A stretch of 62,171 bases of DNA from Bacteroidota bacterium (GTDB lineage Bacteria; Bacteroidota; Bacteroidia; Bacteroidales; JAUZOH01): NCBI GenBank assembly GCA_030706565.1, contig JAUZOH010000001.1:1-62171 (forward strand), given 5' to 3'. Below are positions 10,009-26,732 of this stretch, one piece after another; positions within the stretch are counted from its first letter, which is position 1; every line of letters begins with the position of its first letter. Below the pieces are notes generated by a model. It was not told the origin of the DNA. It did not search any database and was given only the letters and a program-made list of their open reading frames with translations. The position numbers and the translations under genes were made by a program.

Positions 10009-10923
10009 ATGAAAATTAATTATGACATAAAAGCATGGAAAGGGAAACAGCCGGTAAAAGTATTGGAAGATAAACTTGATGATTATAAAAAAGAAGTATT
10101 AACTAATTTGAATTTAATCCAATATGAAAATGTGTTTGACTATGATTACACCGAAATATCAATTCAAACAGGTCCTTTTGCTGGAATTGATAAAAGAATA
10201 AAAATAGAAGAATCATTTCAATCATTTATTTGGATTTGGTCTTATTGCCTAATGACATTATATGATGAAGGTGTTGCAAAACCAAGATTGAAGATTACAA
10301 ACTCTAAATCAAAGATTAAACAAGCTTTTGATTTATTAGATTATGGATATACATTACTTGACAATTTCCAGAATTGGGATTTAAAGCTTCCAAACCCTCA
10401 AGAATATGATATATCTGATTCTTATTATATAGAAAAGGCAAATGGCGTTTACATTTTCGCCATGAATGAATTATATCTGCATGAAATTGGACATATCCAT
10501 AATGGAGATATTGATAAACTTATAAATCATAATACTGGTAGGTATATTATAGATTTAGCTGAAAGGAAATCTTTTGAATATAATGCAGACAAATTTGCTT
10601 TTGAAAAGTTAGTAATTGGTATAAAAAATCCAATTTATAACAAAACAATTGAGTTTGGAATAATCTCTGGCTTCTCAGCTCTCATTATGATTCAAACTAC
10701 ATTGAAAGACTATTCAGGTATGTATCCAGATGCAGATGAAAGATACAAAATAGCGATAGAATCTCTGAATATTCATGAAGAAGATAATCTATGGGGAATT
10801 GCTTGTTTGGCATGGAAACTATGGAGTAATAAAAATTCAAGAGATTTAGATTGGGCAGTAGAATACGACACCTACAAAGAATTATTTCAAGCAACAATTG
10901 TAAAAGTAAACGATTTTAAGTAA
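10009..10923 (+). CDS. ImmA/IrrE-like (M78-type) HExxH metallopeptidase-like protein
   Basis: 304 aa with LHEIGHIHNGD followed ~25 aa later by ERKSFEYNADKFAFEKL (HExxH ... E..A..FA pattern). No HTH or signal peptide is present. Confidence 0.55.
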   Translation: MKINYDIKAWKGKQPVKVLEDKLDDYKKEVLTNLNLIQYENVFDYDYTEISIQTGPFAGIDKRIKIEESFQSFIWIWSYCLMTLYDEGVAKPRLKITNSKSKIKQAFDLLDYGYTLLDNFQNWDLKLPNPQEYDISDSYYIEKANGVYIFAMNELYLHEIGHIHNGDIDKLINHNTGRYIIDLAERKSFEYNADKFAFEKLVIGIKNPIYNKTIEFGIISGFSALIMIQTTLKDYSGMYPDADERYKIAIESLNIHEEDNLWGIACLAWKLWSNKNSRDLDWAVEYDTYKELFQATIVKVNDFK

Positions 10924-11094: not shown

Positions 11095-13860
11095 ATGAAA
11101 TTTAAAACCCAACATTTAAGAAATATTATAGATGCTAACAATGATAATCGATTAGCAATTTTTATTGGAGCTGGAGTTTCAAAAAATTCTGAAACGAAAG
11201 GACTAAAACTACCAACATGGCAAGATTTAATTGATGATTTGAAGAAGGATTTAGAATTAACTAGTGAGACTGACTTTTTAAAAATAGCACAACTTTATTA
11301 TCTTGAATTTAAAGAGTATTCATATCTTAAAAAACTAAAAAAATATTTCCCTGATAGCATAAGACCTTCTTCAATACACAAACAAATATTTGATTTAAAT
11401 CCTCAAGTAATTATTACAACAAATTGGGATACAATTCTTGAGAAAACAATAGAAGAAAATGCATATATCTATGATGTAATTCGTTGTGATGAAGATTTAG
11501 TTAAATCCACTATTCAAAAGAAAGTGATTAAAATGCATGGGGATTTTAAAAATCACAATATAGTTTTCAAAGAAGATGATTACTTGAATTATCAATATAA
11601 TTTTCCATTAATCGAAAATTACGTAAAAAGCATTTTGTCTACTCATACGGTACTTTTTCTTGGTTATTCATATAATGATATTGATTTCAAACAAATAATG
11701 AAGTGGTTGCAAAATTATTCAAAAGTACAACCGCCTAGATATCTAACTGTCTTTTATGAAAATTCAACCCAAAATAAGTATTTAGAAAATCATGGAATAA
11801 CCACATTTGTGCTTGATGAACCCAATGGTTCAATGAATCTTCAAAGCGACTATACTGAGAATACAAAGTATTTCTTAGACTTGATAAAAAATGATGAAAG
11901 AATAAACTTCTTAAAAACAGAGAATGACATTATCAATTTTGTTTTCAATAAATTAAAGGTGCTTTCTGAACTAAATGGTATTTTAATTGAACAAATACAA
12001 ACCTCATTGACTAATTGTGGTTTTCTGTATGATGATAGCAATAAAACAATATTGGAATTCCGAGATAAAATACTCACATATGACTTAAATAAAGAAAAGA
12101 GAAATATTTATAAGGAATTTGTAAAAATACTAAATAAGCAAAACGATAAAGAATTATCAAACAAGACTCTGTATAGTATTTTTGAAATTTTAAGTAAAGC
12201 TAATATTCAAGGAATTGTTATCACCGAAGACGACTTATCAACAAGGCAAAAGAAATATATAGTTCTTGATGACTATTTAACAAATAAAGAATTTAATCTT
12301 GAATCAAAGTATCTTGATTTCAATTTTTTAATTGAGGACAAATCAACAAATGATATTTATGAATTGCTTCAAAAATCATTCATTTTATATCAGCTTGAAG
12401 ATTATGAAAAAGCTTATGAGATTGTTGAAAAAACAATAATACAGTGTTTAAAACAGAAAAATTACACTGTTTTATTTATTTCAATGTTTAATAAAAATGT
12501 TCTTCTCTGGAATTTGAAATATGGCTTTTTCCAAAATAGAAAAGCATATGAAAACATTGAAGAATATAACTTAGAAGAAAAGTTTAATCAGCTTCCAAAA
12601 GACTTACAAAAAGCTCTTAAGCCAATTTATAACTTTTTAAACTCTTGTTATTTGTACAAATTTGCGTACAGAATATCAGAAGAATTAAATAAAAAAGAGG
12701 AATCTAAAAAAACTATCAAATCTGGCGGTTTTGTTTTAAACTCTAATATTACTGAATCTTCTTCAAAACATAAAAATCTAATTTTATTTGTACTTCGTAA
12801 TGGAATAATTTTAGAAGGAAGAAGCGAATTTCAAAGTATCAATAAATATTTTCTGAAAATTTCTATTATAAGACAGGTTCAAAATAAAGCGACTACATTT
12901 AATGAAATAGAGTTTTTTTCAGCGATAAAATATTTGTCAAATAAAGAATTAAAGCATCTACTATCTGATTTTTTCAAGTATGATTCTGAACAAAAGGGAA
13001 AATTTGAAATTTCAGAAGAAAATAAAGATTGGTTAATTAATAGGGTATTAATAAATCTTATAAATAGATATATAAATTCCGATAATGCGTTTAACACATT
13101 TGAAAAATACTTAGAGAATACAATCTTCTTACTTTCATTAACAAAACTATCAGATGATGAAATTTCAAAAATTTTAGAAAGCTTTAATATCATTATCGAT
13201 AAAGCTAAAAATACAATTGGAATTTACGAATCAATAAATCTTTTCTTGGAAAACCAATATAATCTTCATAGTACATCCATTAATGAGAGTTCATTACTTA
13301 ATTTGATAAAATCCATAATTAATAAATTTGTAAGCAAGCAATATAATGGATATGATTTTCATGCTATTACACGCAATGAAATTTCGAATTTATATGGTTA
13401 TGCAAGAGAACAAAAAGCAATTTTTAAAGAAAAAGCATTGATTAATAAATTAATTGATGCATCAAAAGAACTACCAATAGAAGAACAATTAAATATTTCA
13501 GAATCTCTTCTTCTTAGTATTTATGATATTTCTACTGATGAAATTAAGACAAAAATTAAAGAATATATTTTGAGCATAAAATCAAGTGAAACAAAAGAAA
13601 AACATGATTATTTAATATTTGAGCTCATCTTAATTATTCGTGATTTTAAAAATTTAGAAACATCTTTAATCAAAGAGCTTGAAGAATATTTTGAACCATA
13701 TAAAGACTCAAAGTCATTTTCTTCAATTTGGTATTCAATAGATGGTCAAATAGATTATTTAATAAAAGAAAAGCAACTAACTCAGCTCAAAGAAGTTTCT
13801 TCAACGATAAAAACGTTAATAGAAAACTTTAAGAAAAGTGAAAGATTTTCAATATTTTAA
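11095..13860 (+). CDS. SIR2-domain protein with a long helical C-terminal region (defence-associated sirtuin-like)
   Basis: 921 aa. The N-terminus carries RLAIFIGAGVSKNS, IITTNWDTILE and VIKMHGDF (SIR2_2-type motifs). About 700 aa of K/E/L/N-rich sequence follow without a P-loop. Confidence 0.75.
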   Translation: MKFKTQHLRNIIDANNDNRLAIFIGAGVSKNSETKGLKLPTWQDLIDDLKKDLELTSETDFLKIAQLYYLEFKEYSYLKKLKKYFPDSIRPSSIHKQIFDLNPQVIITTNWDTILEKTIEENAYIYDVIRCDEDLVKSTIQKKVIKMHGDFKNHNIVFKEDDYLNYQYNFPLIENYVKSILSTHTVLFLGYSYNDIDFKQIMKWLQNYSKVQPPRYLTVFYENSTQNKYLENHGITTFVLDEPNGSMNLQSDYTENTKYFLDLIKNDERINFLKTENDIINFVFNKLKVLSELNGILIEQIQTSLTNCGFLYDDSNKTILEFRDKILTYDLNKEKRNIYKEFVKILNKQNDKELSNKTLYSIFEILSKANIQGIVITEDDLSTRQKKYIVLDDYLTNKEFNLESKYLDFNFLIEDKSTNDIYELLQKSFILYQLEDYEKAYEIVEKTIIQCLKQKNYTVLFISMFNKNVLLWNLKYGFFQNRKAYENIEEYNLEEKFNQLPKDLQKALKPIYNFLNSCYLYKFAYRISEELNKKEESKKTIKSGGFVLNSNITESSSKHKNLILFVLRNGIILEGRSEFQSINKYFLKISIIRQVQNKATTFNEIEFFSAIKYLSNKELKHLLSDFFKYDSEQKGKFEISEENKDWLINRVLINLINRYINSDNAFNTFEKYLENTIFLLSLTKLSDDEISKILESFNIIIDKAKNTIGIYESINLFLENQYNLHSTSINESSLLNLIKSIINKFVSKQYNGYDFHAITRNEISNLYGYAREQKAIFKEKALINKLIDASKELPIEEQLNISESLLLSIYDISTDEIKTKIKEYILSIKSSETKEKHDYLIFELILIIRDFKNLETSLIKELEEYFEPYKDSKSFSSIWYSIDGQIDYLIKEKQLTQLKEVSSTIKTLIENFKKSERFSIF

Positions 13861-14702: not shown

Positions 14703-15422
14703 TTATTTTTTTCTCAAAGTATCTCCTAAAAGATCAAAACGTAGAGCCGTATGTACAATTCTGTCTAGAATGGCATCAGCCGCAGTCGTATTTTTCTTCA
14801 TTACGTCATACCAATCAGCAACAGGAAGCTGACTGATTATAACAGTTGACTTTCTTGAATGCCTGTCCTCAATGATTTCCATGAAGTCCAGCAGTTGCTG
14901 TCCGTCCAGAACTTTCATACCAAAGTCATCCAGTATAAGCAGGTCGGTCTGTGCCATCCTGTCAAAGAACTTTGGCAAGGAGGACTCTATGCGTGCCATG
15001 GAGATGTGTTCAAAAAGTTTTTGCATGTTGAAGTACGCGACCTTGTAACCGGAAAGACAAGCCTGATACCCCAATGCTGTACCGAGCCAGCTCTTTCCAG
15101 TGCCCGAAGCTCCTGTGATAGTTACGGGCACGCCTTTTCTTATGTACTCACAGGTGGCCAGCCTCATGATCCTGTCCCTTTCCACACCTCGTGCAGCATC
15201 CATGGACAAATCTTCAATGCACACCTGATAGCGGAAGCGGGCGTCCTTGATAAGCCGGGCATTGCGGTTCTCCTTTCTCTGGTCCTGCTCCGACTGCAAT
15301 AGCAGCTGCAGGCCGTCACTGAAGGACATGGAGTCTACCTTTCTTGTTTCCTGTAACGAGAGCCAGCATTGTGCCATTCCCGGCATCCTGAGACTCTTCA
15401 GTTCATTTGCGATTTCATTCAT
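14703..15422 (-). CDS. istB: IS21 helper ATPase IstB
   Basis: 239 aa with Walker A GASGTGKSW and Walker B LLILDDFG, immediately downstream of istA. Confidence 0.9.
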   Translation of the reverse strand: MNEIANELKSLRMPGMAQCWLSLQETRKVDSMSFSDGLQLLLQSEQDQRKENRNARLIKDARFRYQVCIEDLSMDAARGVERDRIMRLATCEYIRKGVPVTITGASGTGKSWLGTALGYQACLSGYKVAYFNMQKLFEHISMARIESSLPKFFDRMAQTDLLILDDFGMKVLDGQQLLDFMEIIEDRHSRKSTVIISQLPVADWYDVMKKNTTAADAILDRIVHTALRFDLLGDTLRKK

Positions 15423-15451
15423 AACACTTTAATTTTTAAAAATTATACATA

Positions 15452-17029
15452 TTACTTGAATTGTTCTTTTCCTCTGATGTTGGCATGGTCGGGATGGGCA
15501 GGGATGCAGTCGATGGATTCTGTCTCATTGACTTCCTCCACCCCCTTGCATTTGCTTTTTACTAGTTGCAGGACGAAGGGATATCGATACTTCTGATATA
15601 TCAGGGCTGTCTCGCACGCCTTCCTGAACAGGTTTGGATCGGTCGTTCTCTGCAGGTGCAGCAGACCCTCACAGCTTCTGTAGAAGGTCTCAGGAGGCAC
15701 GGTTGCCGTCGCAAACATATATTCGATGACCTGGCCAAGCTCGTCCATCGCTTTCTTGCCACGTGTGACATAATACTCCGGAGACCGGTCACGGTAAGCC
15801 AGCGAGTTGGACGCGAGGTGTTCACGTACCAGCGTATAATGTCCGGCGGAGTAATCTCGTTGATGCGTTGCCACACATTCCCCCTGGCAATACACCTTTA
15901 CAAGTGTCCGGGTATAAATGACCTTGACTTTTTGTCCGATGAAGGAGTGCGGCACGGAGTAGTAGTGCTTGTCTCTTCCCAGATAGATGCACCCGTTGAC
16001 GCCCACCTTCAGCTGGGTATAGGAGCGTATCTCGAAGTCGGCGGATGGAAGCGGACGGAGCTCGGGCTTCTCAATGGCCAGGAACTGTTCCTCACGGGTA
16101 TATGGATGCTGCTGCATGCGTTTCTGATTGTGGACCTTCATTTTCTCCGCTACGGCTCTGTTCAATTCCTCCAGCGAATAGAAACGTTCGTTGCGCAAAG
16201 GGGCATAGACCCTCTGATAGACAAGCTTCACATGATCCTCGACAAGACTTTTGTCCTTTGGGTGTACCGGACGTGCCGGCAAGACAACGCAGCCATAATG
16301 GTTTGCAAGGTCCTCCATGACGCGGTTGATCTCCGGTTCATAGGGGTCGGTCTTGATGACGGCGGATTTCAGGTTGTCCGGGACAATTATTTTTGGAACG
16401 CCTCCAATGGATCTGAAACAGCTTGCAATGGCATACACCAGATCCTCGCTTCTTTGAGAGGGAACGCCCAGAGCGTAGCCATAGTCCGTTGCGGGCATAC
16501 ATGCGACAAACATCTGAACCGTAATGATCTCGCCCGTCTCCATGTCGGTGTACTCCATCGTGTCCCCGGCAAAGTCTATGAAGATCTTCTCTCCACCAAC
16601 AAAGGTGTCCTTCAAAACGGTTGAGGACCTTTCTTCTTCGGCCAACTTGTTCTGCCTGCAGTGAAAGCGGAACTGCGTAAGAGAGTATCCCTCTGGGTTC
16701 TCCGCCTTGTATTCCTCCCACAGGAGCTTGAGAGTTACATGTTTGCGAGCCTCTTCCTTTTTCAGGTAAGGGAGTTTCTCCTTAAGCTGCTCAAAACGCA
16801 TATCCGTGTAGGCCGGACTGCCGCCGGTCATGCGGTGCTCCAGCACGGGGTCGTCAAGCCTGAGAAGTCTGTTGATGTTCATACTGTCGGATTCCGCACG
16901 TTTGACGTAGCGGTTCACCGTTTCCTTGTTCATCTCCAATTGCGTGGCTATCTTACGGTTGGATACCCCATCCAGATGCAACTGGAGCACTTGTTTGATC
17001 TTGCTCATTTCTTTTGTCTTTCCTGCCAT
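15452..17029 (-). CDS. istA: IS21 transposase IstA
   Basis: The start was taken at MAGKTKEMSKIKQVLQLHLDGVSNRKIATQL (HTH). A DDE integrase core follows. The track ORF extends to 17293 across the terminal repeats. Confidence 0.9.
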   Translation of the reverse strand: MAGKTKEMSKIKQVLQLHLDGVSNRKIATQLEMNKETVNRYVKRAESDSMNINRLLRLDDPVLEHRMTGGSPAYTDMRFEQLKEKLPYLKKEEARKHVTLKLLWEEYKAENPEGYSLTQFRFHCRQNKLAEEERSSTVLKDTFVGGEKIFIDFAGDTMEYTDMETGEIITVQMFVACMPATDYGYALGVPSQRSEDLVYAIASCFRSIGGVPKIIVPDNLKSAVIKTDPYEPEINRVMEDLANHYGCVVLPARPVHPKDKSLVEDHVKLVYQRVYAPLRNERFYSLEELNRAVAEKMKVHNQKRMQQHPYTREEQFLAIEKPELRPLPSADFEIRSYTQLKVGVNGCIYLGRDKHYYSVPHSFIGQKVKVIYTRTLVKVYCQGECVATHQRDYSAGHYTLVREHLASNSLAYRDRSPEYYVTRGKKAMDELGQVIEYMFATATVPPETFYRSCEGLLHLQRTTDPNLFRKACETALIYQKYRYPFVLQLVKSKCKGVEEVNETESIDCIPAHPDHANIRGKEQFK

Positions 17030-17622
17030 GACTTTGATTATGCTTACTTGGGTACTGTTACACAGCACAAAGTAAACCGGACAAAAGTGAACGGACATGC
17101 TCCGTTTTTTAAAAAGTCTGGATAAGTGAACGGCAATGCTCCGTTTTGCTTTATCATCCAGTTCCTTACGAAGACAAATTGGGTGGCAATGCTCCGTTTT
17201 TAGGTGGATTTTTGCCTTACCAGAATTGTCTGGGTGGTAATGCTCCGTTTTTTTGTCTGTTTTTGCCTGTTCTTGCAGGAAATGAACGGACATGCTCCGT
17301 TTTTTAGGCCCTTTTTAGGACAAAAAGAAGGTTATTGAACTCCGTCTTTTTGGGTGGGTATGCTCCGATTTTTCCACGACAGAATCCGCCGGTAGGTTTG
17401 CAGCCGTTGAAACCAACATGATCACGTTTCCCGCACTGTGTCTATCCCTGACAGTTAGTGGTAATTTTGAATTTTTGGAAAAAGTAATTGAACAGAAAAG
17501 TAACTCGTGGGTTAATAATATTGGATAAATATTTAATAAATTTTAAAATCATATATTATTTCATACTTTTGTACAATAATCAAGTATGGCAATAGTTAAA
17601 AGATTAAATTAAAAGGAAGGTT

Positions 17623-17859
17623 ATGAGTACCATATTGGAAAGTTTAAAGTCATACTTTCAAAACAATTCCAGAGAGCAAATAGAAAGGGATTGGGCTGAA
17701 TTTGAAAAGTACGATAAAATAGGACTTAAAGTAGATGAGTTTTTAGAACGATGCAAATTGTTATATGAACAAGATACAAAAGATACCTACTGGGAATATA
17801 ATTGTTTAAATCAAATAATTAAAAATCCGAAGTTCGCTTCGGATTTTTTTTTAATTTAG
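17623..17859 (+). CDS. Hypothetical small protein (candidate antitoxin of the chaperone cassette)
   Basis: 78-aa acidic ORF with a hydrophobic/aromatic tail KNPKFASDFFLI. It is the first gene of a 3-gene same-strand cassette. Confidence 0.45.
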   Translation: MSTILESLKSYFQNNSREQIERDWAEFEKYDKIGLKVDEFLERCKLLYEQDTKDTYWEYNCLNQIIKNPKFASDFFLI

Positions 17860-17885
17860 TTTTCTAAAATTAACTATGACATTAA

Positions 17886-18293
17886 ATGAATAAAGCCGCA
17901 TTTACTTTAGAAAAATATCGATTTGAGAAAGTAATGATTGATTTTTCAAAAAAATCATCAAATGATTTAGACATCGGTTTTGAACCGTCTGGAAAATTTT
18001 TCTCGTCTGACTCTAGTTATGAACTAAAATTTGTATTTATTGCTCATAACGAAAATCCGAAAAATGCATTTGTTCAAATTGAATGTATTGCTCAGTTTAA
18101 ATTTGAAGAAAACATAAAATTTGAAGAGATCCCATCCTATTTTTACAGAAATAGTATTGCCATAATCTTTCCGTATGTTAGAGCTTTTATTAGTACTGTA
18201 ACTTTACAAGCTAACATTCCACCAATTGTAATTCCAACAATGAATTTATCTTCTTTGGAGAATCCTTTAAAAGAAAATACAATACAGATTTAA
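17886..18293 (+). CDS. SecB-like chaperone
   Basis: 135 aa. ...FVQIECIAQFKFEE...YFYRNSIAIIFPYVRAFISTVTLQANIPPIVIPTMNL matches the C-terminal LFPY.R...S.....GFPP..L.P.NF signature of SecB. Confidence 0.6.
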   Translation: MNKAAFTLEKYRFEKVMIDFSKKSSNDLDIGFEPSGKFFSSDSSYELKFVFIAHNENPKNAFVQIECIAQFKFEENIKFEEIPSYFYRNSIAIIFPYVRAFISTVTLQANIPPIVIPTMNLSSLENPLKENTIQI

Positions 18294-18305
18294 CTTGACA
18301 TTACA

Positions 18306-18884
18306 TTGAAAGTAAAAACCGTATACCAAACACTTGAAGATAGAGGAAATCCAGATGAGATAGAACAAAATGCACCGTTTCCATGTCATTGGGAGAATGC
18401 TTGGCTTGGTGACGGTTACTACTTTTGGGATACCTTTATAGAAAATGCTCATTGGTGGGGAAATGTAAGATATAAAAATAACTATGTAATTTGTAGCTTC
18501 AGTTGTGACTTTGATACAGCAACCTGTTTCGATTTAGTTGGAGATACAGAACACATGTTAGACTTCTCCAATAGCATTGAATTTCTAAAACAGCAAAAAT
18601 TAATTGATGTTAATACAACTGTCCCTAGAGTCTTAGCTCTTTTGAAAAGCAAAGTCAAAGGATTTAATTATCAGGCGATAAGAGTTTATGGCATAAAATC
18701 AATTTCAGATTTTAAACAAGACTTTGAGAAATATAGACATCGATTGGTTTTTGAACTTTCAAAACCCCAATATTTAGACTATAAACCTGCAATACAAATT
18801 TGCATATTTGACAAAAAAGGAATTAACCTAAGAAATACAAAAATTGAATTTCCAGACGAATACAATTATGACTTTTTAGTTTAA
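18306..18884 (+). CDS. Hypothetical protein (candidate toxin/effector of the cassette)
   Basis: 192 aa with a TTG start. It carries AWLGDGYYFWDTFIENAHWWG, a G.G.YF-type motif reminiscent of ART-like/DUF3990-type folds (weak). Hairpin repeat copy B follows. Confidence 0.45.
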   Translation: MKVKTVYQTLEDRGNPDEIEQNAPFPCHWENAWLGDGYYFWDTFIENAHWWGNVRYKNNYVICSFSCDFDTATCFDLVGDTEHMLDFSNSIEFLKQQKLIDVNTTVPRVLALLKSKVKGFNYQAIRVYGIKSISDFKQDFEKYRHRLVFELSKPQYLDYKPAIQICIFDKKGINLRNTKIEFPDEYNYDFLV

Positions 18885-18895
18885 AAACTACCGCT

Positions 18896-18946
18896 AATAA
18901 ATAGGACTCTGAGCGGTCTGCAAGACCCAGCGATGAGTCTGTGTTG
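18896..18946. repeat. Cassette-end hairpin repeat, copy B
   Basis: Identical to copy A over ~50 nt and located 11 nt after the stop at 18884. Confidence 0.8.
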
Positions 18947-19311
18947 ATTGCCACTACAACCTGTTTCTGCCTTACCGGTTAAAATCAAATATAAATCTGG
19001 AAATAAACAGTTCCACTTCCACTATAGTCAAGCCACTTAACGATCTTTTCAAGATCAAACATTTATTAATCGCGCAGCGTAAAACAACCATTCCGTTTTG
19101 GCTGGGTTCTGTCTGAGCAAAGTCCGCCTCCTGGCGGACGGCGCGAGTTCAGCCAGCCAAGCATTTTTCTTTGGTTCCGTTTCCTTTGTTGCCACAAAAG
19201 AAATGAATGTATAATCTTTTTGTGACGACAACTAAGCGAAGCGGCCTCACTCTCCGGCATTTTAAAGAGAATAAAAAAGAATAAGGCAATTTGACCGGAT
19301 TAAAAATCTAC

Positions 19312-19382
19312 CGGCCAGGTTTAATATTTTTTTTAAAATTACTTTGTCTGTATAAAAAAATCTACCTTTAAGTATGAGAATA
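19312..19382. repeat. Promoter-like ~70-nt direct repeat, copy 2
   Basis: cggccaggtttaatattttttttaaaattactttgtctgtataaaaaaatctacctttaagtatgagaata lies ~105 nt upstream of higB. Confidence 0.75.
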
Positions 19383-19486
19383 CTTATCCGTTGTGCAAAA
19401 TTGCAAAAAAACATTCTGTGAAGAAATTACACTTTGATTATAGTTTCCTTTTGTGAAACTTTATTTGTATATTTGCAGATAAGTTT

Positions 19487-19819
19487 ATGAAAGTACATTT
19501 GATTAAAAAACAGTCTATTGAGGACTATGTCTTAAAAAATGCAAGAAGTGTTGCATCATTTGAGATTTAGTTATCAATTATTAAACGAGTTGATTGGAAT
19601 GAGCCTAAAGAGATTATCTCGACTTTTAATAGTGCAGATATTCTTGGTAAAGGTTCAGACAGAGTTGTATTTAATATTGGCGGAAACAATTACAGACTGA
19701 TTTGCAAATATAACTTTGGAAATACAAGAGTTCATCTCTTTGTAAAGTGGATTGGTACTCATGCAGAGTATACAAAACTTTGCAACGAAGGAAAACAATA
19801 CGAGATTGATGTTTATTAA
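19487..19819 (+). pseudogene. higB: HigB-family toxin gene with an in-frame amber codon
   Basis: MKVHLIKKQSIEDYVLKNARSVASFEI-TAG(19568-19570)-LSIIKRVDWNEPKEIISTFNSADILGKGSDRVVFNIGGNNYRLICKYNFGNTRVHLFVKWIGTHAEYTKL... HigB homologues have Trp at the stop position. Confidence 0.75.
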
Positions 19820-19837
19820 AGTTTTAAAAAGAAAAAT

Positions 19838-20278
19838 ATGAAAACATTAATATATACAGTAATAAAGGATATTAAGCAATACAAAAATTATTGTGACACT
19901 TTGGAGAAATTGGTTCTTCGAAATGATAAAGAAAATAATGACGAGATTGAACTGCTTACTCTATTGATTGAAAAATGGGATAATGAGCATAATACATTTA
20001 ATGATTCAGATCCAATAGTATTACTTAAATTTCTAATGGAAAATCATGATTTAAAGGCAAAAGATTTGGTAACTATTATGGATTTATCAAAAGGGACAAT
20101 CTCAAAGATTTTAAACTATCATAAAGGACTTTCAAAAGATACAATAAGGAAGCTTTCAGATTATTTTAAAGTATCTCAAGAAGCCTTTAATCGACCTTAT
20201 AAACTGATTAACGAAGTGAATAAACATTTCCGAAATGCAAGTTTAATGAATACAAGGAAAAATATGATAGAGGCATAA
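19838..20278 (+). CDS. higA: HigA-family HTH antitoxin
   Basis: 146 aa with a C-terminal HTH (LKAKDLVTIMDLSKGTISKILNYHKGLSKDTIRKLSDYF), 19 nt downstream of higB. Confidence 0.75.
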   Translation: MKTLIYTVIKDIKQYKNYCDTLEKLVLRNDKENNDEIELLTLLIEKWDNEHNTFNDSDPIVLLKFLMENHDLKAKDLVTIMDLSKGTISKILNYHKGLSKDTIRKLSDYFKVSQEAFNRPYKLINEVNKHFRNASLMNTRKNMIEA

Positions 20279-20336: not shown

Positions 20337-20879
20337 CTATTTACAGTAGTTTTGTGGCAGAAGTTCTGCCAATCTATTGGCTTTGTGCTCAGAAATACGT
20401 GAGAGAACGTCCCTGAACCAGGTAAAGGGTTCTACTTTGTTGAGTTTGCAGGATCCAATAAAGGAGTACATCATGGCCGCCCTTTGTGCGGCTTCATGTG
20501 ATCCGGCAAATAGATAATTCTTCCTTCCCAGAGCCACCGGACGTATGCTATTCTCCACAAGGTTGTTATCTATTTCATAACGGCCATCTTCCATGTAACG
20601 CAACAGCCGGGGCCATAAGGCCAGGGTATAAGATATAGCTCCCCCTATAACACTTTTGGGCAAAACCTGTTCAAGGTTTGCTTTTAGCCAGGTTTCCATT
20701 TTGGTTAGCACGGGCAATGCTTTTTCCTCCCTCAGGGATTTTCGGGCTGTTGCATCCATCCCCTGTTCTCGGGCACATCGCTCCATGGCATACAAATCCT
20801 GCATCAGCATAAGCATCTGCTTTGCCCTATCCGGATCATTATCTAAGGAATCTTCAAATTTACGCCTGGCATGCGCCAT
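20337..20879 (-). pseudogene. IS66-family transposase, C-terminal fragment only
   Basis: AHARRKFEDSL...YAMER...LENSIRPVALGRKNYLFAGSHEAAQRAAMMYSFIGSCKLNKVEPFTWFRDVL is the conserved IS66 Tnp C-terminus. The N-terminal ~300 aa are absent and the region is GC-rich. Confidence 0.85.
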
Positions 20880-21014: not shown

Positions 21015-22340
21015 CTATAGGGTTCTGTTTTTAACCCAAAACGCCCTTAAGGGATAAACAAGTTTATATATTAGACGTTGTTCTTGTGTAATAATTTCGC
21101 AGCTACCATTATATAAACTTTTCATAGAAATATCTTTACCGTATGTAGTTAATAATTTTGACGAAAAATTAACTTCAGCAAAGTAAAAGTCATTATCCGG
21201 GACAAGAGATATCTTATTGACAAAACCGCAAAGCATACCATATTCCATATATGGAAAATCATCTAATTTAATAATAACTTTCTGTCCAACCTTAACTTTG
21301 CCAGAACTTTGTATAGGTAATTGTATCTTGGCAATATAAGAAATTGAACCAGAAGGTATGATAGTAAATACGACATCCCCTTTTTTTACATTTTGGTTTT
21401 TGTTCCATATACGAGTAAAAGTCATTATGCCATCTGTTGTTGATTTTAAAATATATGTTTTTTCCCAATCAGAAATATGTGAAAGTAAAACTTCATAGCT
21501 TTCTTTAAGATTATTATGTTGTTGGGTTGTTTGTTCTAAACGTTGAGATGATAAATCGAGAATATCCTGATTTAATTTTGTAACTTGAATGTTTGCATTA
21601 ATAATTTCGGTATTTACATTTTCAAGAGTACTTTTTGACTGCAAATAGGTAGTCCGAGATTTCTCAAAATCAGCTAGCGCTATAACTTCATGTTTATATA
21701 ATAATGAATCTCGCCTGAATTGACTTCTCGCAATACTTAATTGTTCTTTTGAATAATACAATTTTTTATTTAATTTTTTGATATAGCTATTTTCTTGAGA
21801 TATCTCGAAGTTAAGGCTTGCTATTTTTTTTCGTTGGTAATTAAGAAAAACAAAATTGTTATAGTCACTTAATTGTTTTATGAAAGATGAATAATATGGC
21901 TGAATCTCGCCTAATTTAAAATAATCATATGTAATTCCTGAAAAGATAGTATCCTTAAACTGAAATATTGAGTTTAAGGAGTCTGTTAAGTTTTTAATTG
22001 CGAAAACTTCCTTATAATCGGCATTACTCTCTATAACTGCTAATATCTCATTTTCATTTACATGTTGATTGTCCCTAATAAATATTTTTTCAATCCGACC
22101 ATCTGAATGTGCTACTATAGAAGAAGGAATATTATTTGCAGTAATTTGAACTTTTCCTGAAACGATATCAGGGTATTTAAAAAACCAGCATCCTATAAGG
22201 ATTATCATTAGAAAAATAAATATTATGGTAATGCCAAATCTGACAAACCATTTAGGTACAATTCCAATAATATCATTAATCTCATTGTTCTGTAACCTAA
22301 GTTTTCCAATTTCTGTTTTTAGTGGTTTATTATTTTCCAT
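21015..22340 (-). CDS. HlyD-family secretion adaptor (bacteriocin export)
   Basis: 441 aa with an N-terminal TM helix and a long coiled-coil middle region, directly downstream of the C39-ABC transporter. Confidence 0.75.
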   Translation of the reverse strand: MENNKPLKTEIGKLRLQNNEINDIIGIVPKWFVRFGITIIFIFLMIILIGCWFFKYPDIVSGKVQITANNIPSSIVAHSDGRIEKIFIRDNQHVNENEILAVIESNADYKEVFAIKNLTDSLNSIFQFKDTIFSGITYDYFKLGEIQPYYSSFIKQLSDYNNFVFLNYQRKKIASLNFEISQENSYIKKLNKKLYYSKEQLSIARSQFRRDSLLYKHEVIALADFEKSRTTYLQSKSTLENVNTEIINANIQVTKLNQDILDLSSQRLEQTTQQHNNLKESYEVLLSHISDWEKTYILKSTTDGIMTFTRIWNKNQNVKKGDVVFTIIPSGSISYIAKIQLPIQSSGKVKVGQKVIIKLDDFPYMEYGMLCGFVNKISLVPDNDFYFAEVNFSSKLLTTYGKDISMKSLYNGSCEIITQEQRLIYKLVYPLRAFWVKNRTL

Positions 22341-22343
22341 TGT

Positions 22344-24533
22344 TTAATTACCAAGTTCAAGTTGGTTTTTAACTAAATTGAAATAAGAACCTTTTATTGA
22401 AGTAAGTTCATGATGAGTGCCTATTTCGGTAACACAACCATTGTTTAGAACAATAATTTGATCAGCATTTTTAACGGTACTTAAACGATGAGCTACCACA
22501 ACAACTGTCTTACCTTTAAAAAATTGTAAGAGATTTTCCATTATGATACGCTCATTATTCGCATCGAGTGCATTGGTAGCCTCGTCAAAAAACACGAATT
22601 CTGGGTTTTTATAAATAGCCCTTGCAATTAAAATTCGCTGCTTTTGTCCCTGACTAAGTCCATTACCTTCCTTCCCAATTATTGTATTATAACTTAATGG
22701 CAAACTCTCTATGAAGTCTTGAATGTTCGCCATTTTTACTGCATATAGAAGTTTTTCTTTGTTTATTTTTTCATCAGAAATGGCTATGTTCGAAGCAATA
22801 GTTTCGGAAAAAATAAAGCCATCCTGCATAACAACCCCACACTGACTTCGCCACCAACTATTGTTGTAGTTCAGTAAATTAATGTCTCCTATATTAACAC
22901 TGCCTTCAACCGGTAAATAAAAACCAAGCAAAAGTTTTAACAAGGTTGTCTTGCCACTTCCACTTGCACCCACAATCGCCGTTGTTTTTTTCTGAGGGAT
23001 AGTTATATTTACATTATTTAACACTTTTGGAGAATGAGGCCCCTCATATTGATAAGTGACATTTTTTAGTATAATACTTCTATTTTCGGGTAGATATGTA
23101 AGCTTAGTTTCTTCTGGTATTTCTTCATCTTTTTTAATATGGATTTCACAAAGTCGCTCTATGCTTATTTTAGCAAGTTGACTACTTTGAATAAATTCAA
23201 TCATTTGTTCTATAGGACTATTTAATTGTCCTATAATGTATTGAATTGCCAGCATCATACCCAATGTCATTTGGCCGTTGAGTACAGCAGTAGCTGCCAT
23301 TATAGTGATAATAATATTTTTAGTTTCATTAATAAAAACAGATCCTGATATTTGGTATTGTGTTACAGACAGATTATTAAGGTTGATATAAAATAAATTA
23401 GCTTGTATACCTTCCCATTTCCATCGTTTCTGACGTTCGCAATTATTAAGCTTTATCTCTTGCATACCTTCAATTAACTCTAGCGTATTATTTTGATTAG
23501 CCGATAGTTGAGCAAACCTTCTATAATCCAAATCTTTCCTCTTTTTCATAAACAAAAACATCCACAGACAATATAATGTACTACCGAGCATAAATACAAT
23601 GAAAATTTTTATCTCATAAATAGCCAAAACTACCCCAAAGATAATAAGGTTAAAACTTGAAAAAAGCACACCTAACATTTGAGAAGAAAAGAATTGTTCT
23701 AGCCTTTCATGATCATTCAAACGCTGCAAAATATCCCCAGTCATTTTGTTGTCGAAAAAACTTATCGGTAGCCTCATTAATTTGGAAAGGAAATCAGATA
23801 AAATTGAAATATTTATTCTTGCACTAATATGTATAAGTATCCTAGACCGAATAAAATCTACAGTTGTTCGACTTATAAATAATGTCATTTGCGCCATCAG
23901 GGCAAGGTAGATAAAATTTAGGTCCCGTGTATTGATACCAGTATCAACAATAGCTTGAGAAATAAAAGGAAAAATTAATTGAACAATACTACTAAATAAT
24001 AAACTCACAAATAATTGAAAGAAAAATTTCTGGTAGACTAAAATATATGAATATAAGAACTTAAAACCGGATGTTTCTTTGTTATTAGCTATTGTTTTGT
24101 AGAATTCTGACGTAGGTTCAAGCAACAAACAAGTACCAAAATCTCCATCATTATTTGAATTATTAATCCAACCTCTTTTAAAATCGCTAATTGAAAATTT
24201 TAAAAGTCCATATGCTGGATCGGAAACATATACCAGTTTTTTTTTTATTTTATAAACAACGATAAAATGGTTTTGGTTCCAATGGACAATGCATGGTAAT
24301 TGAGCCTCATTTGCCAAAGACTCAAACTTTAGATTTACACCAATTGTTCTGAAACCTATTTTTTCAGCCGCTTCACTAATACCTAATAATGAAACACCTT
24401 CACGCGTAATAAAACAATTTTCACGAAGATATTGAAGGTTATAATTTTTGCCATAAAACTTTGACACCATATGAAGACATGATGGGCCGCAATCTGTCTG
24501 ATCATGTTGATGGATGAATGGGAAGGATGACAT
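22344..24533 (-). CDS. Peptidase C39-domain ABC transporter (double-glycine leader cleaving exporter)
   Basis: 729 aa with N-terminal QTDCGPSCL (C39 catalytic Cys), a six-TM region, Walker A GASGSGKTT, signature LSQGQKQR and Walker B FVFFDEATNALD. Confidence 0.9.
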   Translation of the reverse strand: MSSFPFIHQHDQTDCGPSCLHMVSKFYGKNYNLQYLRENCFITREGVSLLGISEAAEKIGFRTIGVNLKFESLANEAQLPCIVHWNQNHFIVVYKIKKKLVYVSDPAYGLLKFSISDFKRGWINNSNNDGDFGTCLLLEPTSEFYKTIANNKETSGFKFLYSYILVYQKFFFQLFVSLLFSSIVQLIFPFISQAIVDTGINTRDLNFIYLALMAQMTLFISRTTVDFIRSRILIHISARINISILSDFLSKLMRLPISFFDNKMTGDILQRLNDHERLEQFFSSQMLGVLFSSFNLIIFGVVLAIYEIKIFIVFMLGSTLYCLWMFLFMKKRKDLDYRRFAQLSANQNNTLELIEGMQEIKLNNCERQKRWKWEGIQANLFYINLNNLSVTQYQISGSVFINETKNIIITIMAATAVLNGQMTLGMMLAIQYIIGQLNSPIEQMIEFIQSSQLAKISIERLCEIHIKKDEEIPEETKLTYLPENRSIILKNVTYQYEGPHSPKVLNNVNITIPQKKTTAIVGASGSGKTTLLKLLLGFYLPVEGSVNIGDINLLNYNNSWWRSQCGVVMQDGFIFSETIASNIAISDEKINKEKLLYAVKMANIQDFIESLPLSYNTIIGKEGNGLSQGQKQRILIARAIYKNPEFVFFDEATNALDANNERIIMENLLQFFKGKTVVVVAHRLSTVKNADQIIVLNNGCVTEIGTHHELTSIKGSYFNLVKNQLELGN

Positions 24534-24538
24534 TTCTA

Positions 24539-25594
24539 TTATTTATCTAACCATGTACTAACTGACGTTAAAATTGATGGCCAATTAAACTCATTTTTAA
24601 TGATTTTACCAGATGCGTCATAGGTATTGGAAAAATAGTTATGATCTAAATTATGCAAACGTAATATTGTAAGATTATCCTTTTGATTTCTATAAAAACA
24701 TAATGGCAAATAATCATTTAAGGCAGAGGCATCGTCATTAGTACCATATACAATTAAAATAGGTTTATCCACCTTTAATAGATAGTTAATTGGAGGATAA
24801 AAATTAAAAGAATAATCATTTAGAAAATTAAAATAATTGTCGTCTTGTGGAAATGAATCCTTTTTTAAGTACCACTGACTGACCAATTTTTGATGCTGAT
24901 ATATTGAATCGAGCTTTTGTTGTACATTATTAGATGGCAATTCATTTAACATTTCTTTCTTCTTTAAAGAATATATAGATATACTTTGCCGATCAAAAGG
25001 ATTTGACGACATACAAACCACTTTAGTGATTAATTTGGAAAAATTACACGCAAGTTTTGCAGCTACTGAATATCCTTGGGAATGTCCGACTATATAAACT
25101 TTATTAGTATCAATAAAATCTTTTTTTAATAAATAAGTTATTACTTGAGCTGAAGCCTTAACATAATAATCTAAATTATCATTACGAATAAATTTTGATC
25201 TTACTTGTTGGTTATCTGCAATTTGATTTCTGTGATTAAAATCATAAGATATTGGTAACCCGGGCTTTGAGATTATTACGATATGGTATTTTTCCATAAA
25301 ATCTTTTGGAAATAATGAAGATACGGAACAAAAAAAGTCTTTACCATCAACAAAAAATAATGGACTCTGTCCGGAACCTTGAATAAAAAGCAGCATTGCT
25401 TTTTTGGAAGAAATAGGAGAACTTACAATAAAACGAATAGAATCTATGGTCGATTCTTTCGAAGTATCTTTAATTGAGAAATAATTGAAACCACACTTAT
25501 TAATTGAAATTGATTCTTTTTCTATTTGAGCATTGACAATTTGAAAAGAGAATAAAATAACAGCCAATAAATTAAACATTTTCATAGTATCCAA
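24539..25594 (-). CDS. Secreted alpha/beta-hydrolase-fold protein
   Basis: 351 aa with a signal peptide and nucleophile elbow VGHSQGYS (GxSxG). It overlaps the rSAM gene by 23 nt. Confidence 0.55.
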   Translation of the reverse strand: MDTMKMFNLLAVILFSFQIVNAQIEKESISINKCGFNYFSIKDTSKESTIDSIRFIVSSPISSKKAMLLFIQGSGQSPLFFVDGKDFFCSVSSLFPKDFMEKYHIVIISKPGLPISYDFNHRNQIADNQQVRSKFIRNDNLDYYVKASAQVITYLLKKDFIDTNKVYIVGHSQGYSVAAKLACNFSKLITKVVCMSSNPFDRQSISIYSLKKKEMLNELPSNNVQQKLDSIYQHQKLVSQWYLKKDSFPQDDNYFNFLNDYSFNFYPPINYLLKVDKPILIVYGTNDDASALNDYLPLCFYRNQKDNLTILRLHNLDHNYFSNTYDASGKIIKNEFNWPSILTSVSTWLDK

Positions 25595-26732
25595 TTTTTT
25601 CTATTTTACAATCATTAATTATATTTTCAGGTAAATCAGCCAATAATCTATTTTGTATATGCCTGATAAGATTATAAATTTGGTTACAGTATACGGAAGG
25701 ATTATCAAAATTATTTTTATTTGAAAACCTATGAGCTAATTGCCCCCCTCCGCATAATTCTTTAATTTCACATTCTAGACAATTTTTAGATAAATAATCA
25801 TCAGAATGAGCATAATAATAATTTTTAAATAGATTATCTTTAAATAGATCATCTAACTCATTTCTATCTACATTTAAATTAGTTCTCGTAAATCCATTAC
25901 CACATATCCTTAATGAGTCAACAGCTTCAATATCACCATTTGTTTTTACTGTTAAAACGGCATTTTCATTTGTTCCAAACATCTCGTTACCTAATTCAGT
26001 ATATCCCAAAATTTTCTGACAAAGGAAATTGAATGGACGAAACATGGGTCTAGTTTCTGTATCATCATACCATAAGTCAAACAGTTTGATTAACCATTCA
26101 CCAACTTTAGGAATATCATTGGGGTCTTGAACTTGATCATAATTCAAATCTGGAAATAAAAAACTTCCATGAGTAATCCCTATTTTTTTAAAATGTTCAT
26201 ATACTTTAATAGGCTCCTCTTTGGTGTTTATAACACTTAAAATGGCAACTTCATTATAACTATCTTTTAAAGTTTCAATTCCTTTTAAGATATCAGTATA
26301 TGCAGAGGTTTTATCTTTTCTGTATACTCTATTTTCATTTGCAAATGGTGTCCCGTCCATGCTTACCCCAATATTAATTTTTAATCTTTTAAACAAATCA
26401 CACCATTCTTCATTTAATAATGTACCATTAGTTTGCAGAGCAAAATCTATTTTTATATCTGTAATAATTTTGTTTGCTAATTCAATAAAATCAGAATAAA
26501 ATTTTTTGCCTACCAATAACGGTTCACCACCGTGAAAAATTAACAGAAACGTTTTAAGATTATGCTTTTTTATATGATTATTCAATCTATAAAGGAGTTT
26601 TTCAGATGTTCTTAGATCAAGAAAGGAAGGTTCTTTCTTAAAAGATTTATCTCCTTTGTTAAATACGTAACAATAACTACAATTTAGGTTACATTTACTT
26701 GTAACTTTTAAAACCAAATTTTCTAATTTCAT
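25572..26732 (-). CDS. Radical SAM / SPASM-domain peptide maturase
   Basis: 386 aa with CNLNCSYCY (CX3CX2C) at the N-terminus and a C-terminal Cys cluster CLECEIKELCGGGQLAHR...YCNQ. Confidence 0.85.
   Translation of the reverse strand: MKLENLVLKVTSKCNLNCSYCYVFNKGDKSFKKEPSFLDLRTSEKLLYRLNNHIKKHNLKTFLLIFHGGEPLLVGKKFYSDFIELANKIITDIKIDFALQTNGTLLNEEWCDLFKRLKINIGVSMDGTPFANENRVYRKDKTSAYTDILKGIETLKDSYNEVAILSVINTKEEPIKVYEHFKKIGITHGSFLFPDLNYDQVQDPNDIPKVGEWLIKLFDLWYDDTETRPMFRPFNFLCQKILGYTELGNEMFGTNENAVLTVKTNGDIEAVDSLRICGNGFTRTNLNVDRNELDDLFKDNLFKNYYYAHSDDYLSKNCLECEIKELCGGGQLAHRFSNKNNFDNPSVYCNQIYNLIRHIQNRLLADLPENIINDCKIEKIGYYENV

Follow-up and report, generated by a model that had tools for sequence, protein, structure and literature searches.

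Results

The cassette lies in a window of 62,171 bp, the whole stretch of DNA that was analysed, which is an entire contig of a Bacteroidota MAG. It comprises three genes on the forward strand: ORF1 (17623-17859; 78 aa, ATG start), encoding a small acidic protein that is a probable CmdA-type antitoxin, ORF2 (17886-18293; 135 aa, ATG start), a cmdC-like gene for a SecB-family chaperone, and ORF3 (18306-18884; 192 aa, TTG start), a cmdT-like gene for an ADP-ribosyltransferase (ART) toxin. Only 12 nt separate the cmdC stop from the cmdT start. The three ORFs and the peptides quoted in the earlier note were found as described, IIFPYVRAFISTVTLQANIPPIVIPTMNL in ORF2, KNPKFASDFFLI ending ORF1 and AWLGDGYYFWDTF in ORF3. 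An intrinsic-terminator-like hairpin (AAAAATCCGAAG-TTCG-CTTCGGATTTTT) with a T-run (17821-17852, forward strand) is located inside ORF1, 5 nt 5' of its stop codon. Upstream, the sequence TACTTTTG (17564-17571, forward strand), 52 nt 5' of the ORF1 start, is a candidate Bacteroidota-type -7 promoter element fitting TAnnTTTG, the consensus of the Bacteroides -7 element; a sigma-70 promoter scan is uninformative for Bacteroidota. DNA similarity with the closest loci begins at about 17537, and no terminator was found 3' of cmdT.

The contig carries a Rep_3 initiator, ParA, a DUF5712 relaxase-like gene, a coupling protein and Bacteroidetes-type Tra genes. This content fits the plasmid setting proposed earlier, although the contig ends showed no overlap with each other. 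A megablast search of plasmids with the cassette as query found no match. The cassette is probably located on a conjugative plasmid among other defence genes, with Lit-like, ThsA-like SIR2 and RmrA-like genes as neighbours. It is flanked by IS elements, and its expression may be absent.

The ORF3 product matched the PADLOC model PD-T4-9_A (PDLC04068) with E=6.9e-84, residues 1-192 aligning to profile positions 1-187 of 187, and hence the toxin is not unrecognised, as the earlier note had it, but a member of the CmdT/PD-T4-9_A family. It also matched the proteobacterial model PDLC04069 at E=6.7e-18, and reciprocally the CmdT of a Vibrio phage matched both models. CmdT has been established by experiment in E. 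coli to be an mRNA ADP-ribosyltransferase (PMC11618068; bioRxiv 10.1101/2024.02.24.581848). Sequence searches of all three proteins and their family profiles against PDB chains gave nothing useful, so a fold comparison was needed. The AF2 model of the toxin (pLDDT 92.5) has an ART fold of the diphtheria-toxin/PARP (H-Y-E) class, and its best 41 Foldseek matches in the PDB were all ART domains (PARP1/2/4, NatT and VPA0770). The top match had E=0.03, a probability of 0.87 and TM 0.40, each score being weak alone, and this is comparable to the published resemblance of CmdT to exotoxin A (6.9 Å rmsd). The family and Foldseek matches agree with the earlier view that the toxin is unlike HigB, MqsR and HicA.

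A blastn search of E. coli genomes with the Vibrio phage cmdTAC as query found no match. Because there was no E. coli match to align, the T-A-C loci of Vibrio phage, Psychrobacter and Acinetobacter served as proxies for the experimentally studied E. coli proteins. Tyr39 in GDGYYFWD and Gln164 in IQICIF were invariant over the Bacteroidota and proteobacterial sequences, Tyr39 being the equivalent of the catalytic Tyr41 of E. coli CmdT, whose Y41A substitution abolishes defence (PMC11618068). The His of the H-Y-[E/D/Q] triad was absent at the aligned position in 71 out of 71 family members, which have Gln there (Y-Q8-T). This Gln was present in all clades with the A-C-T gene order and in one Psychrobacter T-A-C system; the His is retained in the Vibrio and Acinetobacter proteins and in those of loci L057 and L060. 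Gln8, Tyr39 and Gln164 are thus the putative active-site positions. Downstream of the in-frame stop at 18291-18293 and ahead of the codons for the invariant Y7-Q8-T9, TTG at 18306 is the only canonical start codon; homologues of the toxin are 187-195 aa long, and by heuristic assignment cmdT starts with TTG or GTG in 28 out of 32 loci.

The ORF2 product matched PADLOC PD-T4-9_C (PDLC04072) over its full length with E=6.9e-60. The SecB signature recognized earlier in this 135-aa protein is real, with a match to Pfam SecB (PF02556) at E=3.3e-5 and 24.3 bits, just under the cut-off of 26, and the matter was settled by the predicted structure (AF2, pLDDT 93), which has the SecB fold. The best Foldseek match was 5MTW, the Mycobacterium tuberculosis Rv1957 chaperone with a ChAD peptide (E=8e-7, TM 0.65), whose chains A-D took the first four places among the PDB matches (E=8e-7 to 3e-6, probability 1.0), followed by E. 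coli and Haemophilus influenzae SecB. A SecB(TA) chaperone with a SecB fold, the general hallmark of TAC systems, is therefore present. The operational definition of CmdTAC, applied here as published, is a SecB-like chaperone CmdC encoded no more than two genes from CmdT (PMC11618068), and the cassette falls within it.

The order small ORF-chaperone-toxin was found in 32 out of 32 informative Bacteroidota genome loci (those in which the upstream DNA was long enough) and in 18 viral contigs. Riemerella anatipestifer, Elizabethkingia anophelis and a Flavobacterium are examples of hosts with native copies. Thus the gene-neighbourhood check suggested in the earlier note showed the trio conserved as a unit, far beyond chance given the 32 out of 32 genome loci. 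The SecB fold, the PDB match to a TAC chaperone and the retention of the trio bear out the proposal of a TAC-type cassette built around a SecB-like chaperone. We consider it likely that the trio is a Bacteroidota form of the known CmdTAC (PD-T4-9) anti-phage TAC module, in the order cmdA-like, cmdC, cmdT. The T-A-C order was observed in the Vibrio phage, Psychrobacter, Acinetobacter and L059-L065 loci, and not in the window, the 32 genome loci or the 18 viral loci, which are all A-C-T. A downstream HTH gene (19838-20278) was weighed as a possible partner or antitoxin, but none of 65 related loci has a homologue of it, and it was rejected.

The same conservation bears on two other views: that the cassette is a secB gene with a housekeeping role and two neighbours that have nothing to do with it, or that insertion sequences have enclosed a remnant that is no longer active. 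In public records the 135-aa protein goes by 'protein-export chaperone SecB', an IS21 element lies approximately 170 nt upstream of the cassette and an IS66 fragment downstream, and the toxin does not have the triad His. However, the strict three-gene synteny over very divergent genomes and phages largely refutes this view, all three ORFs are intact and of full length compared with their homologues, the invariance of Gln8 in 71 sequences shows that the His was not lost sporadically, and the closest structural match of the chaperone is a TA-associated SecB rather than a housekeeping one. We therefore regard a remnant or a housekeeping gene as highly improbable.

The ORF1 protein is acidic, as had been noted (pI 4.76; 15 Asp and Glu compared with 11 Lys and Arg), and falls into three parts: an N-terminal module of about residues 1-45 that is conserved, a linker that varies and a tail encoded by the hairpin. 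Its family comprises 241 representative clusters with invariant Tyr11, Trp24 and Asp31, and the gene is always directly 5' of cmdC-cmdT. Orphan N-terminal modules of the ORF1 type also occur in phage proteins, such as that of L068 and the dUTPase fusion P0388. The only CmdA model, PD-T4-9_B, did not match ORF1 or 24 aligned homologues at E≤10; two out of three proteobacterial CmdA proteins likewise miss this model. BLAST detected no similarity between ORF1 and the three proteobacterial CmdA proteins. Profile comparison by hhalign of the ORF1 N-terminal module with the Vibrio CmdA family gave E=0.011, a value equalled by one out of 600 column shuffles; the Psychrobacter and Acinetobacter CmdA sequences, whose addition distorted the alignment, were left out of the CmdA alignment. 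The CmdA of L059 scored 17.7 bits against the ORF1 N-terminal HMM, with one out of 20,000 decoys scoring higher. These weak profile scores suggest a weak but significant relationship of the module to the N-termini of CmdA proteins, and because of this relationship ORF1 is probably an antitoxin of the CmdA type.

A hairpin-less sister clade with the same gene order shares the ORF1 N-terminal module, and its antitoxins end in ...LAA (Y[CYG][LM]AA) like CmdA. A long C-terminal ChAD with a ClpX Ala-Ala degron was not found in ORF1, which ends ...NPKFASDFFLI. Among 51 relatives of ORF1 bearing the tail motif none ends in AA or VA and two end in LA, and no AA end was found among the top 150 ORF1 representatives, whereas the proteobacterial CmdA proteins and those of the L046-L058 clade end in AA. 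As there is no Ala-Ala degron and only approximately 30 residues follow the helical module, the canonical route to a chaperone-dependent antitoxin is not evident.

The terminator-like element lies in the last ORF1 codons, so that its 3' arm would be covered by a ribosome terminating there, and ORF1 fails to match the CmdA model. Both points would also suit a leader or regulatory ORF whose translation governs terminator read-through, CmdT then being held in check by CmdC alone or by another factor. The N-terminal 45 residues are, however, conserved as protein, with the invariant Tyr11, Trp24 and Asp31, and appear related to CmdA, and the module recurs in those antitoxins of the sister clade whose tails resemble that of CmdA; none of this would be required of a leader peptide. 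A leader ORF is thus quite improbable, and we favour an antitoxin.

The hairpin and T-run encode K-N-P-K-F-A-S-D-F-F, and throughout the family it is a hairpin of 9-12 bp and the T-run that supply the codons for the conserved NPKFxS[GD]FF tail. The hairpin of the window folds with -15.5 kcal/mol (z=-4.5). It is kept in 32 out of 32 distinct homologous sequences with compensatory changes: 95% of the cells were paired, five out of nine pairs had changed on both sides and none of 500 shuffles reached the observed score. The T-run is invariant. The codons used for pairing are CCG in 28 out of 29 cases (background 7.7%), TCG in 28 out of 32 (background 3.0%) and AAG in 22 out of 22 (background 22.5%). 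Rfam gave only sub-threshold matches over the hairpin, to enterobacterial sRNA models. The presence of the hairpin in every sequence, the compensatory changes and the rare codons at paired positions show that selection acts on the nucleic-acid structure.

This result changes the meaning of the aromatic tail KNPKFASDFFLI, which the earlier note had proposed as a chaperone-addiction extension. The tail is indeed conserved, but its conservation is explained first by the hairpin and T-run lying in the same codons. Alternatively, selection may act on the peptide NPKFxSGFF itself, which CmdC would bind as a short ChAD element, with the hairpin incidental or secondary. K-F-[A/S/T] of the tail fits the loose polar-aromatic-small motif published for HigA ChAD recognition and FF[LFY] the aggregation-prone patch described there, the M. 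tuberculosis ChADs are likewise short, the reading frame through the hairpin is constant and the loop codon specifies Phe or Tyr in 31 out of 32 sequences. Yet the amino acids of the tail change whenever pairing demands it: the choice between Asp and Gly goes with the base at position three of the Asn codon, Pro is replaced by Ser or Leu with matching changes in the partner, and Ser by Leu. L041 reads the 3' arm in a different frame (NPKFDLRVSFF) and still keeps the hairpin; L030 and L035, too, retain the pairing with an altered peptide. A constraint on the peptide only does not predict the near-exclusive use of the rare codons CCG, TCG and AAG either. Selection of the tail primarily as a peptide is thus somewhat unlikely; a role of the tail as a short ChAD is possible and is not needed to explain its conservation.

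Discussion

The conserved tail of a small probable antitoxin is, as newly found here, the translation of a conserved terminator-like hairpin. It most likely functions as an attenuator after the antitoxin gene, and it might also yield non-stop mRNA. We propose that ORF1 would neutralize CmdT, and perhaps aid its folding, via the N-terminal helical module, and that the labile antitoxin would survive with the help of the SecB-like CmdC until the chaperone is titrated away by a phage protein, the presumed trigger, which would release a putative toxin with RNA as its presumed target. In the most conservative reading the hairpin and T-run would act as an attenuator making the antitoxin message exceed that of the chaperone and toxin, and the weak start codon of cmdT (TTG or GTG) would hold toxin synthesis lower still.

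A bolder model gives the hairpin a part in antitoxin turnover. Termination within ORF1 would release transcripts ending in the T-run, before the stop codon; ribosomes would stall at the 3' end, tmRNA would add its ...LAA tag and the antitoxin would so gain in trans the ClpXP degron that is written directly into proteobacterial CmdA and the sister-clade antitoxins. CmdC, bound to the neighbouring KF..FF segment, would protect the tagged end. Consistent with this, the hairpin and T-run never lie outside the ORF, the in-frame stop begins at least 9 nt after the stem in 32 out of 32 sequences, and the residues after FF are unconserved (0-26 aa). Hairpin and AA ends are nearly complementary, the hairpin clade being without AA ends and the hairpin-less clade ending in Y[CYG][LM]AA; L044 has both a hairpin and an AA-type end. 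The Ala-Ala end of CmdA is required for ClpXP-dependent toxicity, which also speaks for the model, and there are precedents in natural arfA and in engineered terminator-in-ORF constructs (PMC3989581). Against it, a ribosome close behind the polymerase could melt the hairpin and block termination, the constant frame through the hairpin fits a peptide function too, the complementarity rests on few independent clades, and the model is a proposal from sequence rather than from transcripts or proteins. We rate non-stop release as rather unlikely, and hold with similar reserve, as fairly unlikely, the general claim that antitoxin instability in this widespread Bacteroidota sub-type is encoded by an overprinted intrinsic terminator instead of a C-terminal degron, through a tmRNA tag shielded by the chaperone. 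If true, it would be a natural arfA-like use of non-stop mRNA within a toxin-antitoxin immune system, and activation would be tied to transcription-translation coupling and the state of ribosome rescue during infection.

The hairpin suggests a directly testable way in which TAC systems could adjust the antitoxin:toxin ratio and, possibly, the lability of the antitoxin. It is also a cautionary case, in which an apparent conserved peptide motif is mainly a nucleic-acid signal. CmdTAC is one of few defence systems with an mRNA-modifying effector and has been studied only in E. coli. The sub-type described here is large in Bacteroidota and their phages, with hundreds of homologues mostly labelled 'hypothetical protein' plus 'SecB', and a tool demanding a match to the existing CmdA model would miss it.

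E. coli CmdTAC/PD-T4-9 (ECOR22; O112ab:H26), which ADP-ribosylates GA sites in mRNA and provides abortive-infection defence triggered by a phage capsid protein, likewise has three genes, with the toxin in PD-T4-9_A and the chaperone in PD-T4-9_C. Both toxins have the GxGYYFW tyrosine and the IQxC glutamine, and both systems have a small acidic partner with an apparently related N-terminal module and are carried on mobile elements and phages. The differences are considerable. The E. coli order is T-A-C and that of the window A-C-T; the window proteins match the second sub-family models of PADLOC (04068 and 04072), for which there is no partner CmdA model; and the antitoxin has 78 aa compared with about 121 aa, without the long disordered tail and the terminal Ala-Ala. 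Unlike its E. coli counterpart, the antitoxin gene of the window holds a conserved terminator-like hairpin, and the toxin has Gln for the triad His and a TTG start; the sub-type is known here from sequence.

With M. tuberculosis HigBA1-Rv1957 and E. coli HigBAC and MqsRAC the cassette shares a SecB-like chaperone, 5MTW being its closest structure, and the shared logic would be a chaperone stabilizing a labile antitoxin via a C-terminal aromatic element. The toxins of those systems are, however, RNase-type HigB or MqsR and not ART proteins, their antitoxins are HTH proteins whereas ORF1 is not, and ChAD binding, demonstrated in those systems, is only hypothetical in the cassette.

E. coli arfA is likewise a small ORF with a conserved stem-loop in its 3' portion. 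There the stop codon is lost through RNase III cleavage or premature termination and the product becomes SsrA-tagged, which for ORF1 is only a hypothesis. The full-length arfA product has a destabilizing hydrophobic C-terminus, and ORF1 similarly ends in ...FFLI. ArfA is, in contrast, a ribosome rescue protein whose stem is mainly an RNase III site, whereas the hairpin of the window has the canonical form of a terminator with a T-run. In the type III TA system toxI-toxN a terminator/attenuator occupies the intergenic space between the antitoxin, which is an RNA, and the toxin gene. As in toxI-toxN, a terminator after the antitoxin unit would set the excess of the antitoxin transcript over that of the toxin, but in the window the putative terminator is overprinted on protein-coding sequence.

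Organization and genomic setting of the cassette

The three ORFs that an earlier note had described as a possible SecB-centred toxin–antitoxin–chaperone (TAC) cassette were reproduced at exactly the same coordinates, all on the + strand: ORF1 (17623–17859, 78 aa), a probable CmdA-type antitoxin; ORF2 (17886–18293, 135 aa), matching PADLOC PD-T4-9_C and modelled as a SecB fold; and ORF3 (18306–18884, 192 aa), matching PD-T4-9_A with an ADP-ribosyltransferase (ART)-like model. Spacers of 26 nt (ORF1–ORF2) and 12 nt (ORF2–ORF3) separate them. ORF1 is acidic (pI 4.76). The start of ORF3 has to be the TTG, since a TAA lies in frame four codons before it and the invariant Y7-Q8-T9 comes directly after it; homologues of ORF3 span 187–195 aa.

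The window, which is an entire 62,171-bp contig of a Bacteroidota MAG, carries genes for a Rep_3 initiator, ParA, a relaxase-like protein (DUF5712) and a coupling protein as well as Tra genes of the Bacteroidetes type, so that a conjugative plasmid is plausible; no overlap between the contig ends was found. DNA similarity with the nearest loci is confined to about 17537–18898, indicating that the mobile unit comprises the trio and about 85 nt of DNA in front of it. On its upstream side the cassette is bordered by an intact IS21-type element (14703–17293, − strand), with IstA of 613 aa and IstB of 239 aa, which stops about 170 nt before ORF1; other mobile remnants border it on the other side. 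GC content rises across the IS21 element from about 0.29–0.32 to 0.43–0.44. Downstream of the trio, a 180-aa transposase-like ORF (20337–20879) is a candidate IS66-family fragment.

Just upstream of IS21 lie a Lit-like Peptidase_U49 gene (10009–10923; PADLOC Lit, E=6e-9) and a gene for a 921-aa SIR2_2 protein (11095–13860) whose N-terminus matches ThsA (E=5e-31). Judged by these predicted neighbours, the cassette is part of a defence-gene cluster on a plasmid-like contig. A further defence-associated protein, with HTH and M78-peptidase (IrrE-like) domains, is encoded at 60324–61385 and strongly matches PADLOC RmrA (E=4e-58). The gene at 19838–20278 encodes an orphan 146-aa HTH protein that resembles HigA (TIGR02607, E=7.5e-5) and, over residues 1–116, matches PD-Lambda-2_B (E=1e-20). 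It has no evident partner alongside, and it was rejected as part of the unit because it accompanies the trio in none of the 65 related loci compared. On the − strand, a cluster at 21015–26732 (HlyD-family protein, C39-peptidase ABC transporter and radical-SAM enzyme) resembles a locus for the export and maturation of a RiPP or bacteriocin. Two very large − strand ORFs occupy 29529–34649 and 38361–44822 (1706 and 2153 aa), and an adjacent 465-aa protein (37112–38509) has a MotB/OmpA-like C-terminus and weak ZorB matches.

Identity of the chaperone and toxin

PD-T4-9, from E. coli ECOR22 (PMC9519451), is the CmdTAC system. According to the published CmdTAC work, the toxin CmdT is an ADP-ribosyltransferase acting on mRNA; its antitoxin, CmdA, is labile and also aids folding of CmdT, and the SecB-like chaperone CmdC protects CmdA; T4 capsid protein displaces CmdC, and ClpXP then degrades CmdA via its terminal Ala-Ala. 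ORF2 gave a full-length match to PD-T4-9_C (E=6.9e-60). Its AF2 model (pLDDT 93) adopts the SecB fold, the absence of which from the 135-aa protein would have counted against the earlier note's proposal, and the best PDB matches were four chains of 5MTW (E=8e-7, TM 0.65), the Mycobacterium tuberculosis TAC chaperone Rv1957 with a bound chaperone-addiction (ChAD) peptide, followed by E. coli and Haemophilus influenzae SecB. The toxin, previously regarded as unrecognised, falls in a known family, as ORF3 matched PD-T4-9_A (CmdT) over its full length (E=6.9e-84). The top 41 PDB matches of its AF2 model (pLDDT 92.5) were all ART domains (PARP1/2/4, NatT toxin, VPA0770), with weak fold scores (best E=0.03, TM 0.40). 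In an alignment with three proteobacterial CmdT proteins, the invariant Y39 of ORF3 corresponds to the catalytic Tyr (Y41 in E. coli) and the invariant Q164 to the third triad residue. Throughout the clade to which this trio belongs, Gln (Q8) takes the place of the triad His. PADLOC holds two sub-family model pairs for PD-T4-9: 04069 + 04071, the proteobacterial type, is accompanied by the CmdA model 04070, and 04068 + 04072, the type of the present trio, has no antitoxin model.

The trio is conserved as a unit. The order ORF1 homologue, cmdC, cmdT (A-C-T) was found in 32/32 Bacteroidota genome loci with enough upstream DNA (three more, cut by contig ends, are outside this count), in hosts including Riemerella, Flavobacterium, Cecembia, Psychroflexus, Salinimicrobium, Adhaeribacter and Paludibacter, and the full trio recurs in this order on 18 viral contigs. 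In proteobacterial systems the order is T-A-C; among them are a P2-like Vibrio phage with PD-T4-9_A/B/C annotation and plasmids from Psychrobacter and Acinetobacter. The most divergent viral loci (L059–L065) are likewise T-A-C.

ORF1 as a probable antitoxin

Members of the ORF1 family (241 representative clusters) share a conserved N-terminal module of about 45 residues, in which Y11, W24 and D31 are invariant; a variable linker joins it to the tail, which is conserved too. Neither ORF1 nor 24 aligned homologues matched the CmdA model, and BLAST of ORF1 against proteobacterial CmdA gave no similarity. These negatives are of limited weight, because two of three proteobacterial CmdA proteins likewise miss the model and the authors of the Nature paper left CmdA out of system calling as too variable (PMC11618068). 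Profile–profile comparison matched the module to the N-terminal end of the Vibrio CmdA family (score 18.4, E=0.011; reached by 1/600 column shuffles), and the CmdA of L059, a T-A-C locus, whose long tail ends in AA, scored 17.7 bits against the ORF1 N-terminal HMM (1/20,000 shuffled decoys higher). The module is also carried by a sister clade from viral contigs in A-C-T order (L046–L058; E about 1e-13), whose aromatic, apparently disordered antitoxin tail ends Y[CYG][LM]AA like canonical CmdA. From these three matches, ORF1 is probably a CmdA-type antitoxin with its C-terminal part replaced. The sister-clade homologues (at about 2309–2572 of their loci) end ...KYCLAA, ...QYYLAA or ...QYGMAA without the hairpin described below, ends similar to the YALAA with which tmRNA tags terminate.

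The module (residues 1–45, 17623–17757; L..LK.YF.NTP.EQ.EKDW...EKYD.VGPT..EFL) is absent from Pfam. It recurs at the N-terminus, middle or C-terminus of many unrelated proteins (P0388, P0368, P0335, P0385, P0361, L068:2501-2836 and L069:2501-2734), including fusions to dUTPase (P0388) and DUF4406 (P0368) and three matching stretches in P0361, and also on phage contigs without cmdC or cmdT nearby. These proteins could be stable mimics of the antitoxin, borne by phages for counter-defence; alternatively, the module might have a generic role in binding.

A conserved terminator-like hairpin within ORF1

The sole terminator-like site in 17300–19900 lies inside ORF1 at 17821–17852: AAAAATCCGAAG-TTCG-CTTCGGATTTTT, followed by more T. 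Its bases are the codons of K-N-P-K-F-A-S-D-F-F, and its folding energy is −15.5 kcal/mol (z=−4.5). The hairpin is kept in 32/32 distinct homologous sequences with compensatory changes: AAT..GAT to AAC..GGT, so that the Asp/Gly alternation of the peptide varies with the third position of the Asn codon; AAG..CTT to AAC..GTT; and CCG..CGG to TCG..CGA, CTG..CAG or CCA..TGG, altering Pro and Ser/Gly together. Locus L041 retains the hairpin although its peptide differs, because a longer loop puts the 3′ arm in another reading frame. Across the alignment 95.2% of cells are paired (31–66% with slid partners), 5/9 pairs have changed on both sides, the observed covariation was reached in 0/500 shuffles, and the T-run is invariant. 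Stem codons are CCG for Pro (28/29), TCG for Ser (28/32) and AAG for Lys (22/22), whereas the corresponding shares in the cmdC and cmdT genes of these loci are 7.7, 3.0 and 22.5%. Because the sequences are related, binomial P values exaggerate their independence, but the effect is very large. The compensatory changes, covariation and rare pairing codons thus show that selection acts on the nucleic-acid structure, of which the peptide motif is largely the translation. An Rfam search of 17783–17904 on both strands found no known RNA family, only sub-threshold matches to enterobacterial sRNA models (MicC, STnc240, C0465 and others), which all overlap the hairpin and are probably due to the terminator stem-loops of those models.

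The tail had been proposed earlier as a ChAD. Its K-F-[AST] and FF do fit published ChAD patterns, and a second use of the hairpin-encoding sequence is possible; its conservation is, however, accounted for by the hairpin, making a ChAD role superfluous as the explanation.

The cassette is best read as an abortive-infection module of CmdTAC type in which an attenuator closes the antitoxin gene, the first of the three. The putative attenuator would yield more antitoxin message than chaperone and toxin message. Alongside it we note the weak start of cmdT, which under heuristic assignment in L001–L035 is TTG in 22 loci and GTG in 6 (together 28/32); for ORF1 and cmdC the start codon is nearly always ATG, which suggests that low translation initiation of the toxin gene is conserved. 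Alternatively, since the stop codon lies at least 9 nt after the hairpin and T-run in every sequence, terminated transcripts would lack it, and tmRNA might tag the antitoxin, giving it in trans a degron that is encoded in the genes of other CmdA proteins. The analogy with arfA and engineered terminator-in-ORF constructs (PMC3989581) speaks for this, and the hairpin and AA ends are nearly complementary in distribution, the hairpin-less sister clade encoding an LAA end instead; locus L044 has both. We consider such tagging rather unlikely, and retain the attenuator as the preferred reading.

Comparison with CmdTAC

By the sequences of its toxin and chaperone, the cassette belongs to the CmdTAC family. 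It departs from that family in five respects, for which we found no description in the literature searched: the genes run A-C-T rather than the proteobacterial T-A-C, the antitoxin differs in length and C-terminus, the antitoxin gene contains an embedded terminator-like hairpin, the toxin has Gln in place of the triad His, and the toxin gene begins with a non-ATG start codon.
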